Shown here: positions 38,229 through 42,884 of the stretch, piece by piece
Layout of the letters: each line of letters begins with the position of its first letter
How positions within the stretch are numbered: position 1 is the first letter of the stretch
Assembly: GCA_947456795.1 (NCBI GenBank)
Contig: CANGTI010000001.1
Location: 74,900 to 138,899, forward strand
Length of the DNA: 64,000 bases
Direction: 5' to 3'
DNA from: Rickettsiales bacterium
GTDB lineage: Bacteria > Pseudomonadota > Alphaproteobacteria > Rickettsiales > Rickettsiaceae
Program-made: the position numbers and the translations under genes
The notes under the pieces: generated by a model
What the model saw: only the letters and a program-made list of their open reading frames with translations
What the model was told of the DNA's origin: nothing
The model's database searches: none

Positions 38229-38514
38229 GGGTTTGCTTTCCTAAACATGTTATTGTGGCTGTGCGCATTTACTTTTTTATAGTTATAATTGATGCACTTT
38301 TTCTAAAAAAATTCCTTTAAAAATTGTAGTTGTTGCTATTTTGAGTCTTAACATATTTGCCATTACACGGCCGTGCAATACGAGCAAGCAGAGCGAATAA
38401 CATTTGTGAAGGCAGTTATGATCTTACTCACATGCACAGCCCAGACTTCCTAGCTATTGAGCCTTGATACGAGATAGAGGGAGGATGAATTATCCTCCCC
38501 TTAAGGCGATCACT

Positions 38515-38651
38515 CCTCATCATGTTCTGGGATTGCTCCCAGTGGTACCTACCTCAAGAACGATCTAGCGATGCATCATGAGATGGGTCTTCATTTAAAG
38601 CTTCTGGTCGCGATTGATCTTTTGCTTGTTTTTCTATCTGGGCTTTTATGT
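38515..38651. repeat. copy 1 of a ~137-bp direct repeat (offset 164 bp): orphan duplicate of the last 31 codons plus 3' flank of the decayed gene
   Basis: Aligned by eye to 38679-38815. The minus frame reads ...IKAQIEKQAKDQSRPEALNEDPSHDASLDRS* with its stop at 38556-38554. Confidence 0.8.
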
Positions 38652-38678
38652 ATTGCCCCCCTCCAAAGCCCTATCATT

Positions 38679-38815
38679 CCGCATCATGTTATGGGGATTT
38701 CTCACGGGGTGCCTACCTCAAGAACGATCTAGAGATGCATCATGATATTGGTCTTCATTTAAAGCTTCTGGGCGTGATTGATCTTTCGCTTGTTTTTCTA
38801 TCTGGGCTTTTATAT
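38679..38815. repeat. copy 2 of the ~137-bp direct repeat (the genuine 3' end of the decayed coiled-coil gene)
   Basis: The minus frame reads ...IKAQIEKQAKDQSRPEALNEDQYHDASLDRS* with its stop at 38720-38718. Confidence 0.8.
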
Positions 38816-40030
38816 CGCGCAATGTCTTGCCTGCTTTTGATAATTCTTGCGCAACTTTAGAGTGTTCCAATTCTGCATCTCGTAATTCTATACTAGCACC
38901 TTGAATATACTCGTGATGTTTTTCGTAAACCCAATTAATAAGTGCTTTATTTATTGTGCCTTGATTTTTGCGAGTTTCTAATCTTGCATTAAAGTCAGTA
39001 AACCTATATTGCCCAGGCTCTAGTACACTTTCTTACCATTCCATTTGCCTAATCTCTATACTCTCTTCTTCACGTTGGGCCGTTTTTAATAATTTTTCCA
39101 TTGTTGTGCTTGCTTCTTTTTTTGCTTTTAATGCCTCCCCAGCTTGTCTGGCCAAATCTTTTGCAGAATTGCACTCAGTCTGTATAACGTCTATCTCAGA
39201 GGTTTGTCTTGCTTCCTTAGCTTTGCGTTTCAGCAATATCTCCTACAATATCTTATTATAGTGAGTTTGCATGTGTACTGTGTTTTGCTCTATATGCGCT
39301 TGTGCTCCAGCTAAATATGTCTTTACCTCTAACTCTGTCCTCACATCTAATGCTAACTTTTGGGCTACGGCTCTTTTCTGTTTGCATTGAGCATCCAGTG
39401 GGTCTATTTCAATACTCTCACAACTTCTGCTTCCCGCTTTGTTTTTTTTAAACTTTGATACAAATTTGGAGCAATTTGCACAAGTATTGGGTCCCTTTGC
39501 ATTTGATACAAGAGTATTTCTTGCGTTTGATACTCTGTCAAAACATCTGCAGATTTTGTTTGTACTAGTTGTACATTTTGCTGAGCTATAGTTAATTTGT
39601 TCTGAGCCATAGTTTGAGCTGTACTTAACTCGTGCTTAGATTTAGCGTGGCCGCAGATGGTTTCGTTTTCATCATGAGCTGATTGTGGGTTTTTTGTATC
39701 TCTGCTACTTTTTCTTTTGCTCTTCGTAGCTCATCCGATGGCCCTTTCAAGAGAGCGATCTCTTCTCTTTCGTCTCCATAAGAGTTGTCCTGAGGGCTTT
39801 GCTGCTTGATACGAGTTTTGCTAGATCCCGCCATTGCGTGGTTAGGATTTCTATCACGTGCGTTTTTTCTGCTTTGCTTATTTTTGCTACTTTTTCTCGG
39901 GCCTCTATTGCTTTGGCTCACACGGCATAACATTGAATTTCTGCATTGACCAAATCTTTTTGATGTAATGCACTTGATGAGTTTATTGGCTCATCCGTTG
40001 AGTATTTTGCCAGAACTTGTGGGGACCTGG
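38718..40030 (-). pseudogene. decayed gene for a ~430-aa coiled-coil protein of unknown family
   Basis: My own translation finds helical K/E/Q/A-rich sequence running across ORF-track fragments 39625..39933, 39404..39610 and 39033..39236, plus an unlisted open segment 38718..39032. There are in-frame stops (TAG 39245-39243, TAA 39035-39033) and at least three frame changes. The 5' limit is uncertain. Confidence 0.6.
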
Positions 40031-40208
40031 CTCGTAACTTATTTAACAGGTCTCAAGTTGCAGATGTTTCTTGTTCGTGCTTTTTTTTGGCTTGTTTAGT
40101 CTACGGCTGAGGTACTAGAGTGCAAACACTGGACAACTCATATACCAACATACCCTTCATAAAGAAGTTTATATAGAGCGTTTTGATTTATTGATTACTT
40201 GGGCCTTT

Positions 40209-40416: not shown

Positions 40417-40452
40417 CATGTGTAGGAAGCCTTACGCAACCAATACTAAAGT

Positions 40453-42732
40453 CTATCCAAGTTCCGTGGTCACGAATTCATGAGCGTACTCTGCTAACAT
40501 TGGCACCAGGAGGTTTACACGATCAGCGTGCTCTGTATGATCTAATGGGGAGAAGACGTGTGAACTTTGAAGAAAAGCCTGCTCCACAGTCTCAGCCGCA
40601 TCCATATTCTTTAAGTGCAGAGCTCTATCACCTGCTTCTACATAGAGCCTATCATTAACGTTATGGCAGATATTAGCAACCCTTGCGTGCATTATTTTAA
40701 TCTGGTCAAGTCGACCACTTGCAAAGTCTATAAAGTTACTAAATAAGTCCTCTTTTGGAAACGCGTTTCCTGCCCTTAGGCAAGCATCGACAGTACTTAG
40801 CGTGTTGCAGGCTTTAATCTTGTTAGTCGCCTGTTGAATAGCATCAATACTGTTAGAGTCGTCGTGATCATTTGTCAAAATCTCTAAATGAGGAGCATAA
40901 TCGTTCGCTTTTTTGTTGGTGAGCTGCAAAGCATCATGCATTGTTCTTATTGCCATCAAACCTGTATTATCCTTACTGGATTTTAAGAAGTTTTTTATAG
41001 AATCTGCAGTGCTTGTGTTACAGGATATAGCCTGGGACACACTGAGTGCAGATTCTTGCCATGCTTGAAAATCTTTTTGGCTAGTATGCAGGCTTTGGAT
41101 GTGCATTGCATTAAAAAACTCTTTCAAAGTGTTTTCATTACTAGATTCTTCAGACAGATCAACATCAAATTCACTCGCAAGATTGTCTACAAAATTCTTA
41201 GCTTTTTCGACAAGAGAATCACTGTCTACTAAAGATTGATAAGCCGTACTATAAAGTTCAATAGCCTCAGCAATTTTCAGGGTCATGCTTCCATTGTCTA
41301 CAGTATTGAAGGCATCAAGAGCAGTTGTTGCTGCTTGTTTGGCTTCTTCTGCTTTGTTTGCTGCTTTGTTTGCTTCTGCTACTTTGTCTGCTGCTGCTAC
41401 TACTGCTTTGTCTGCTTCTGCTTTAGCTGCTTTAGCTGCTTCTGCATCTGCTTTAGCTGCTTCTGCTTCTTCTACTGCTTTTGATGTATTAGACAGCAAT
41501 CCTGCTTCTGCTGCATCTGCTTTAGCTGCATCTGCTTTAGCTGCTTCTGCTTTAGCTGCTGCATCTGCTTTTAGTGTTTCGGCTTCTGCTTCTGCTTTTT
41601 TTACTGTTTCGGCTGCTGCTTTTGCTTCTGCTTCTGCGGCTGCTGCTTTTGCTTCTGCTTCTGCTTTGTCCTTATTTAGTTCAATTTTTGCTGACATCAG
41701 CTCAGTAAAAGAGTGATCATTGTCAAACTCCAGGCTGTCAAAGCTACGCTTGGTTACTTGACAGCTCGAGGCAAATTTCAGCATGTCTATTTTCTCTGCC
41801 ATGCTCTTTTTCATAAAGGGCAGCTGAGCGTCTACCTGAATATTTACGTAATAGTACAATGCATCTGATAGAGCCCCAGAGTTAGAAAGTAAACTCTTCC
41901 TACTAATCCAATGACATTGAAGAGGCATCTGATCAATAAGCGTACCTGCCTCTTCAAGGTCCTGCACATCTAAAAGTTGTACTTTTGCAGAGTTGGCGGA
42001 GGCGCTGACTGAGTGTGTTTGAGGAATGAGGCTTCCAAACTCGTATATATTGCCTGCTTTGTATTGGAAGAAATAATCTTGCTTCACATCCTCCTTAGCA
42101 ACTAAATGCTTATATTCAGTCTTTTTGGAACGCTTATTGCGGTCATCAACAAATTCGGTGTTAAGCATCCCAGATGCTGCCAACTTATCATAAACACTAT
42201 CAAGTCTTGAGAGAAAAGTACGTAGTGCGAGACCGTACTTTTCTATTAGTGTAGCACTACTCTTTTTGTCTGAGGTTGGGAGCTGCTTTAATGAATTTAT
42301 TATAGCGGTAGCGTCAAGTTCTTGTTGACCAGGGGCCTTTTTAGCGGCATTTTCTAAGTCTTGCTTCAATATTTCTTCAAGATTCACAAAGGAAAAAAGC
42401 TTAGAATTGAGGTCGGTAACGGGAGTTACTGCTTCTGCTTTTGCTGCTGCTTCTTTTTCTTTAGCTTCTGCTTCTGATTTTGTTGCTTCTTCTGCCGGGG
42501 TAGTACCTGCGCCGCCAGCTGCTGCCGGGCTAGCACCTACCACACTATTACCTGATTGACTTTGTTGGTCTTTTATTTGTTTCAGCAATTCAGTTTTTGT
42601 TTTGTTCAACGATGCAATCTCACTATTTATACCATCTCTTTGATTCCTGAATGCATTTTTTAATGATTGATGTTTGGCTGATAATTCTGCTTCTAATTTT
42701 CTTAGTTCTAGTTCTAGTTCTTCTTTATCCAT
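40453..42732 (-). CDS. 759-aa hypothetical protein with Ala/Glu/Lys-rich repeats and coiled coil (ORFan; no recognised domain)
   Basis: Long uninterrupted ORF with an ATG start. N-terminal charged coiled coil. Two A/E/K low-complexity tracts, including KADAA-type pentapeptide repeats, separate two non-repetitive regions of ~240 and ~290 aa. No signal peptide or TM segment seen by eye. Confidence 0.8.
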   Translation of the reverse strand: MDKEELELELRKLEAELSAKHQSLKNAFRNQRDGINSEIASLNKTKTELLKQIKDQQSQSGNSVVGASPAAAGGAGTTPAEEATKSEAEAKEKEAAAKAEAVTPVTDLNSKLFSFVNLEEILKQDLENAAKKAPGQQELDATAIINSLKQLPTSDKKSSATLIEKYGLALRTFLSRLDSVYDKLAASGMLNTEFVDDRNKRSKKTEYKHLVAKEDVKQDYFFQYKAGNIYEFGSLIPQTHSVSASANSAKVQLLDVQDLEEAGTLIDQMPLQCHWISRKSLLSNSGALSDALYYYVNIQVDAQLPFMKKSMAEKIDMLKFASSCQVTKRSFDSLEFDNDHSFTELMSAKIELNKDKAEAEAKAAAAEAEAKAAAETVKKAEAEAETLKADAAAKAEAAKADAAKADAAEAGLLSNTSKAVEEAEAAKADAEAAKAAKAEADKAVVAAADKVAEANKAANKAEEAKQAATTALDAFNTVDNGSMTLKIAEAIELYSTAYQSLVDSDSLVEKAKNFVDNLASEFDVDLSEESSNENTLKEFFNAMHIQSLHTSQKDFQAWQESALSVSQAISCNTSTADSIKNFLKSSKDNTGLMAIRTMHDALQLTNKKANDYAPHLEILTNDHDDSNSIDAIQQATNKIKACNTLSTVDACLRAGNAFPKEDLFSNFIDFASGRLDQIKIMHARVANICHNVNDRLYVEAGDRALHLKNMDAAETVEQAFLQSSHVFSPLDHTEHADRVNLLVPMLAEYAHEFVTTELG
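41340..41670. repeat. imperfect 15-bp-period tandem repeats (GCATCTGCTTTAGCT-like) inside the ORFan
   Basis: GCTTCTGCTTTAGCTGC and GCATCTGCTTTAGCTGC recur. On the coding strand they give AKADA / AEAAK units. Confidence 0.7.
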
Positions 42733-42847
42733 ACATTCACCATCTAATTAGTTTAAAAAATAACATCTACTTCTAACACGTTTTTTAAAAGAATTGCAAG
42801 TGGAAAAATTGCGTTTTATGTATGTTTAATATTGATCTTATGTTTTA

Positions 42848-42873
42848 TGACTGATTTTGATGACTGATTTTGA
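42848..42873. repeat. perfect 13-bp tandem duplication TGACTGATTTTGA x2
   Basis: Read directly. It lies 12 nt beyond the murG stop and about 115-140 bp upstream of the ORFan start. Confidence 0.8.
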
Positions 42874-42884
42874 TAGAATTATTC

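Follow-up and report, generated by a model that had tools for sequence, protein, structure and literature searches.

We analysed a 64,000-nt stretch of DNA from a Rickettsiales bacterium (the window), in which the interval 38229-42884 separates a gene for a hybrid histidine kinase (HK) from murG. The overall best explanation of this interval, to which we give a probability of roughly 0.55, is that it is a slot for a single gene, specific to one clade, which lies between the convergent murG and HK genes and has been refilled serially. It holds one intact gene without relatives, which we call ORF759 (an open reading frame, ORF, of 759 codons), one decayed gene, and two relics of the murG 3' end, while in related lineages the same flanks enclose other genes. 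That the interval is a variable accessory slot at all is, in our judgement, very probable. A preliminary description made from the sequence of the window had called it a lineage-specific variable locus with limits at the two flanking genes, and in this it was right: the limits are exact to the stop codons, the flanks are conserved in relatives, the content differs in each and has no annotated function, and conserved content between the flanks, which would have spoken for a core locus, was not seen in the relatives. On the other hand, its view that genes accumulate at this place does not hold, since there is only one intact gene at a time and the remainder is decay.

Copies of the murG end and the layers between them

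The main features, from the HK side to the murG side, are as follows.

38229-42884: the studied stretch, 4,656 bases, exactly between the HK and murG stop codons
36546-38228, forward strand: HK, the left flank, 560 aa, with the Pfam domains HisKA, HATPase_c and Response_reg, convergent with the locus
38231-38281: inverted copy of the HK-internal segment 37755-37805 (40/51 nt, ungapped), directly after the HK stop codon
38275-38470, reverse strand: murG relic 2, the last ~200 nt of murG plus a 42-nt spacer (E 5e-10)
38509-38813: 164-bp tandem duplication of the pseudogene 3' end (1.9 copies, 89%)
38721-39933, reverse strand: pseudogene, a coiled-coil-like former occupant of ~400 codons (~1.2 kb)
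40167-40254, reverse strand: murG relic 1, a copy of the final 46 nt of the gene and of the 42-nt spacer (E 8e-8)
40453-42732, reverse strand: ORF759, the intact present occupant, 759 codons
42843-43084, reverse strand: segment R, the final 200 nt of the live murG with the adjoining 42-nt spacer, duplicated in both relics
42885-43961, reverse strand: murG, the right flank, preceded by ftsW, with the Pfam domains Glyco_transf_28 and Glyco_tran_28_C

The second murG 3' end noticed in the preliminary description is real (relic 1), and a further one (relic 2) lies beyond it; this third murG end, the boundary common to the relics and the conserved promoter described below had not been mentioned there. 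Relic 1 is 81-85% identical to the live copy at 42842-42930, and relic 2 is 79% identical to the live 42843-43084, with 54 gap nt that were lost to deletions; their alignment scores of 67 and 110 stand against maxima of 40 and 42 in shuffled controls, and the alignments of both relics end at one boundary, 42842/42843. The duplicated 42-nt spacer downstream of murG itself holds a 13-nt tandem repeat. Relic 2, the one nearer to HK, is more gapped than relic 1 and is the oldest layer of the locus; the DNA adjoining the two relics has nothing in common. Since both relics are closer to this genome's own murG than to that of any relative, they are younger than the split from the other lineages. A simple tandem duplication of the murG end together with its neighbouring gene was rejected, because the relics are ~80% identical whereas the adjoining genes share nothing; had they been duplicated jointly, ORF759 and the pseudogene would still be ~80% identical as well.

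The resulting order, murG-R-ORF759-R-pseudogene-R-HK, fits two successive insertions, each of which duplicated R, and we regard serial insertion with duplication of the murG end as a reasonably well-founded account of the locus. Under this account, the slot would have been refilled at least twice in this genome, with each refilling duplicating the murG 3' end together with the 42-nt spacer, and a plausible route would be a single crossover in the murG end that imports a different allele from a related strain. Each new gene would land beside murG, and the prior occupant would be displaced toward HK and decay there, which would leave the gradient from the intact ORF759 through the pseudogene to a nearly erased layer represented by relic 2 only. 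The layered relics would then record the order of events. We infer both the recombination mechanism and the source of the incoming DNA; a related lineage fits as the source because the incoming gene carries the promoter of the clade, its codon use is native, and no mobility gene accompanies it. A more specific form of this proposal, in which the locus works as a conveyor that imports unrelated alleles of one promoter-defined gene from related strains by crossover in the murG end and stacks them beside murG while old alleles erode toward the kinase, seems doubtful to us. If it were true, it would imply ongoing DNA exchange between host-sharing Rickettsiales lineages as well as diversifying selection on one host-facing protein, and if alleles are imported at all, the relics would be evidence of recombination between lineages in reduced symbiont genomes.

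The direct repeats from the 3' end of a target gene that flank each module, and their sharp common boundary, would also suit what remains of a mobile element or integrative island which targets the murG 3' end, brings a replacement end and has lost its integrase. As in genomic islands at the 3' ends of genes or tRNAs, a murG 3' end copy borders each module while the live gene remains intact, the displaced ends remain as relics, and serial events lead to a tandem arrangement. However, no integrase, transposase, recombinase or other mobility domain was found in any ORF or pseudogene piece on either strand, the locus has no match among 72,556 plasmid or 50,697 phage records, and the modules measure just 2-2.7 kb with a single gene each. 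Moreover, ORF759 is compositionally native, as its G+C content at third codon positions (GC3, 0.309) equals that of the window (0.311) and is identical to the genome's; the repeats of 88 and ~240 nt are nearer to homology-driven crossover than to the short att core of islands; and the incoming gene has the promoter of the resident slot that is known from other species, which indicates a homologous locus as its source. We therefore consider such an island very unlikely.

The decayed coiled-coil gene of the preliminary description was confirmed. It can be read only when three frames are joined, which takes at least two frameshifts, and it contains two in-frame stops, at 39243-39245 and 39033-39035. 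A run of eight T at 39442-39449 (A8 on the coding strand) lies where two of the frames are both open, and may be the slippage site behind one of the frameshifts. Its pieces match no family in Pfam, NCBIfam and further family libraries, and show no similarity to ORF759 or to the slot genes of the relatives. What had been taken for an orphan gene 3' end (38557-38670) does exist, and is the second copy of the 164-bp tandem duplication.

A repeat-rich locus at which the assemblies of relatives break might also be suspected of being an assembly or annotation artefact, produced by chimeric joins or mis-assembled repeats. However, the locus is base-for-base identical in three independent assemblies, namely, the NCBI genome, Logan ERR12084901 and the ENA MEHR18-2 metagenome, which come from different samples of one and the same strain. 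This agreement throughout the stretch indicates that it is not an assembly artefact, and we hold that explanation to be extremely improbable.

Relatives, the slot promoter and the case for vertical descent

Our comparison group consisted of uncultured Rickettsiales, whose lineages were found through orthologues of HK (53-55% identical) and MurG (58-66% identical); a first MurG scan of the genome collection gave no match, and a metagenome scan missed a 93%-identical relative (P0124). Five related lineages have syntenic flanks, with miaB-PBP1A-HK on one side and murG-ftsW-M23 peptidase-dnaQ-pgsA on the other. The contents of their murG-HK intervals are listed by locus.

L003: an orphan gene of 638 aa and a 1.95-kb non-coding sequence in which a lipB fragment lies
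L005/L019: a gene of 855 aa or more, which opens with a 39-nt tandem array
L028: an incomplete gene (343 aa or more) cut by the contig end
L020: the coiled-coil start of a gene, after which the contig stops

No significant similarity was detected between any two occupants by blastp, blastn, tblastx or shuffled Smith-Waterman alignment. Cryptic homology among them was considered and rejected, as the best shuffled-alignment z-scores were 3.5 and 2.9 and the alignments were unconvincing. The occupants nevertheless resemble one another in composition: those measured (window, L003 and L005) have an isoelectric point (pI) of 5.0-5.4, 14-16.5% Ala and no membrane segment, and in four of four occupants, including the L028 fragment, the 30-aa window richest in A/G/P/Q starts at residues 14-77 and reaches a fraction of 0.57-0.97, compared with a maximum of 0.47 among the 43 other ORFs of the window. 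In a distant genome, L026 (MurG 41% identical), only 6 nt separate the murG stop from a convergent HK receiver domain (E 7e-18), and since murG and HK abut there, the slot is an insertion specific to one clade. L025 (a 605-kb chromosome) has flhA in convergent orientation 4 nt past murG; both L025 and L026 keep ftsW-murG yet are without a slot gene.

Several further observations were made at these loci. Short-read assemblies of the relatives repeatedly break at the murG-HK locus, and the 39-nt array breaks every one of more than 20 short-read contigs; the array unit is AWGASTGEAPAPA (L005 14543-14975; L019 5337-5420). The lipB fragment in the 1.95-kb gap of L003 (12105-12262) is a 162-nt inverted piece, 69% identical, of a lipB-like gene 7 kb away, and the relative C-4_bin-230 has a tandem duplication of its HK 3' end at a period of ~159 nt (L005/L008 11537-11671 and 11696-11837). 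A single metagenome, JGI sample 3300059473, contains three related murG contigs (P0124, P0126 and P0130). In the 93% relative P0124 from this sample, murG is followed by a gene in the same direction that encodes 671 aa or more, while in the relatives with 58% and 53% MurG identity a convergent gene follows murG after 264-380 nt, and these two may lack the slot.

The signals around the slot gene, all on the reverse strand, are the following.

42770-42799: extended -10 promoter TTGCAA-N15-TGT-TAGAAG, 36 nt before the ORF759 ATG
40387-40416: 12-bp stem-loop with an imperfect stem, then UCUUUG, 37 nt after the ORF759 stop codon
40268-40293: perfect 10-bp GC-rich hairpin between the ORF759 terminator region and murG relic 1
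38478-38502: GC-rich hairpin GGGAGGAU-loop-AUCCUCCC with an imperfect stem (z = -2.4), downstream of the duplicated pseudogene end

We searched for the promoter with the pattern TTGNAN-N15-TGN-TANAAK, based on the slot consensus TTGcAa-N15-TGn-TAnAAg (a sigma-70 extended -10 promoter). The pattern matches once in the 64-kb window (0.23 expected) and once each in the murG-downstream spacers of L003, L019 and L020, 36-44 nt ahead of the start codon, and the L028 spacer has a version with one mismatch. Its sole other match in the 146 kb of window and loci is at L026 8721 on the reverse strand, 20 nt upstream of an M23 peptidase gene. A Shine-Dalgarno-like GGTGA lies upstream of the ATG of the slot gene. 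The sequence GTGCAT-N15-TGG-TCAATG before the pseudogene was considered as a decayed promoter copy and dismissed, as it lacks statistical support, and generic promoter and terminator scans performed no better than shuffled controls. The stem-loop at 40387-40416 is likely the transcription terminator of ORF759, as judged from its position and form. The several GC-rich hairpins of the preliminary description thus amount to the three listed here; a scan for perfect stems (at least 9 bp with at least 4 G/C) returned only five hairpins for the window, of which the stretch contains one (40268-40293).

The conserved promoter also bears on the main rival of serial refilling, namely, that one vertically inherited gene has diverged in place beyond recognition through repeat expansion and contraction under relaxed or positive selection. 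The pseudogene and the murG relics would then be unrelated scars of local duplication in a recombination-prone spacer. The promoter and its position, conserved in five lineages, fit this explanation, as do the N-terminal A/G/P/Q tract, the acidity and the Ala richness common to the occupants, the native codon use, the marginal z-scores of 3.5 and 2.9 between some domains, and the existence of local duplications of ~160 nt at gene 3' ends, without any insert, in both the window and L005. However, vertical descent leaves unexplained why a different full-length gene module follows each of the two murG-end copies, why both relics end at one nucleotide, and why the decayed gene is unlike ORF759 though the neighbouring relics are still ~80% identical. 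We thus consider it rather unlikely, in spite of the points in its favour.

A number of points weigh against serial refilling as well. It needs the complete deletion of the earliest occupant beside relic 2 as an extra assumption, and the common architecture and promoter could equally fit vertical descent with extreme divergence. Serial insertion appears to be documented in this lineage only, as the loci of the relatives contain no murG relics. No donor allele was found, the putative island is without a recombinase or mobility gene, and the promoter pattern was defined only after the sequences had been seen.

The present occupant and its possible role

ORF759 is a true orphan, as the preliminary description had proposed. 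It has no match in Pfam, NCBIfam, PHROGs, PADLOC or the PDB beyond coiled-coil noise, and a HMMER search of 1.84e9 representative proteins returned only ORF759 itself and one match treated as spurious (P0123, E 1.4e-6), which rests on tandem repeats of 25% identity, with eight matched repeats that seemingly inflate the E-value. Matches to a tape measure protein, a major capsid protein, JetC and EspJ were likewise set aside, as they involve coiled-coil or low-complexity sequence only and fall far under the cut-offs. The protein is hydrophilic, with a pI of 5.03 and 16.5% Ala, and has no membrane or hydrophobic segment and no signal peptide. The only confident predictions within it are coiled coils at residues 3-60 and 343-476; residues 51-80 form an A/G/P-rich tract, and the protein also has a region rich in Ala, Glu and Lys. 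Ala-rich tandem repeats occupy 41328-41666, and a perfect 27-nt tandem duplication at 41610-41664 in this Ala-rich region suggests recent repeat slippage within the intact gene. The sign of a phase-variable contingency gene, a length-variable simple repeat in the promoter or the 5' coding region that differs among samples, was not found, as ORF759 contains just one homopolymer of 7 nt or more, a run of seven T in the middle of the gene (41596-41602), and the three assemblies are identical.

We prefer, with some hesitation, to see the slot protein as a possible exported host-interaction protein, although we hold this to be less likely than not; the preliminary description had likewise thought of host-interaction or effector genes, for which the evidence is indirect. 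This reading is preferred because the slot always retains a single intact gene behind a conserved promoter in spite of extreme sequence turnover, and because the protein is acidic, repeat-bearing and without a Sec signal in an obligate intracellular lineage. In obligate intracellular bacteria, suspicion of host manipulation usually falls on orphan proteins with a fast turnover, which are hard to recognise because they have no matches. Export would require a non-Sec route, and the flhA gene in the window points to a flagellar type III export apparatus. Against this reading it must be said that no secretion signal in support of export was found, and that the structure prediction failed to offer any fold-level clue: AlphaFold2 without an alignment gave a predicted local distance difference test (pLDDT) score of 43.2 for the whole of ORF759 and 37.4 for its C-terminal 282 aa, and fold matches to models of such pLDDT would mean nothing.

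The closest parallel is with the tandem repeat proteins (TRPs) of Ehrlichia, which are described as acidic substrates of the type 1 secretion system (T1SS) with a non-cleaved C-terminal signal, the criterion being that the last 50 residues are rich in LDAVTSIF and poor in KHPMWC (PMC3417381). However, by this criterion the slot proteins are indistinguishable from the housekeeping background of the window: the C-terminal 50 residues of ORF759 contain LDAVTSIF at a fraction of 0.60 and KHPMWC at 0.16, compared with a window background of 0.53 +/- 0.07 and 0.18 +/- 0.05. The slot proteins share with TRP32, TRP47 and TRP120 and with Anaplasmataceae repeat proteins an origin in obligate intracellular Rickettsiales, an acidic and repeat-bearing sequence without a Sec signal peptide, and, as in the TRPs, a species-specific character with little or no homology between species. 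On the other hand, ORF759 has no sequence homology to the TRP or RTX family in Pfam, NCBIfam or the 1.84e9 proteins searched with HMMER, the pI is ~5 rather than the ~4 of TRPs, and the repeats are Ala-rich coiled-coil or A/G/P/Q tracts, whereas TRP units are rich in Ser, Asp and Glu. Positional conservation behind one promoter with stacked decayed predecessors is not known to have been described for TRPs. The comparison is thus best read as an analogy and not as membership.

A similar analogy can be drawn with the msp2/p44 expression site of Anaplasma, which also combines a fixed site and a conserved promoter with changing coding content and pseudogenes. In msp2/p44, the donor pseudogenes and the expressed copy have conserved ends in common and recombine by gene conversion within a strain. 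In contrast, neither the pseudogene nor the rest of the 64-kb window shares anything with ORF759, and the slot locus is invariant across three samples of one strain.

As an alternative to a host-directed role, the slot could encode a lineage-specific structural, envelope or division protein, such as a TolA-like or divisome coiled coil tied to ftsW-murG. Its place directly downstream of ftsW-murG in the same orientation, the constant presence of exactly one intact copy with a conserved promoter, and the long coiled coils with an Ala/Glu/Lys-rich region would agree with such a function. However, the gene is absent from L026 and L025, which retain ftsW-murG; its sequence turns over far faster than fixed bacterial partners would lead one to expect; it has neither a membrane anchor nor a signal peptide; and it has its own promoter rather than a clear operon coupling. 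We thus regard this alternative as improbable.

Fast-evolving orphan loci in reduced intracellular genomes are a known kind, of which the slot beside murG is a new example. It goes a little beyond the routine in having a conserved promoter before unalignable genes, a layered record of refilling in the form of murG relics, and recurrent assembly breaks; indeed, the locus explains the recurrent break in the metagenome-assembled genomes of this clade. The conserved flanks and promoter also provide a handle by which the murG-HK interval can be amplified or searched for, and the species-specific occupant recovered, throughout the clade.

Flanking genes and other parts of the window

The preliminary description had further argued that the stretch sits where a dcw cluster would normally continue. 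In such a cluster, murG is followed by the co-directional genes murC, murB, ddl, ftsQ, ftsA and ftsZ; however, murC follows murG neither in the window nor in any relative examined. This argument therefore fails, and because the murG-murC linkage is absent in all relatives examined, the break between the two genes is old and unrelated to the stretch.

On the opposite side, HK is modelled 95 codons shorter (465 aa) by the gene callers in other assemblies. A GTG start at 36546 gives the N-terminus MKYY[LF]FSLLG.AFFWNP, which is kept in both orthologues, P0004 and P0005 (55% and 53% identical, with this N-terminus in common), and since it is conserved in both, the longer HK model is probably right. 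The 46 nt next to HK, beyond relic 2, include the inverted copy of an HK-internal segment, which may permit long-range pairing in the HK transcript or be a recombination scar. A search of Rfam at E values up to 1 found nothing within the stretch.

The contrast drawn earlier between the stretch and the short spacers elsewhere is borne out: the median gap between genes in the window is 127 nt, and 38229-40452 (2,224 nt) is its longest stretch without a large ORF (at least 150 aa). The accompanying statement that every gene elsewhere is recognisable mostly holds as well, except that a 580-aa ORF at 58497-60239 is also without a Pfam match. This ORF overlaps the start of a PD-(D/E)XK nuclease ORF (60136-61113), and at the syntenic place in L025, ahead of the PDDEXK_1 gene, lies a 562-aa ORF that likewise has no Pfam match; judged by this synteny, the 580-aa ORF appears to encode a conserved unrecognised protein.

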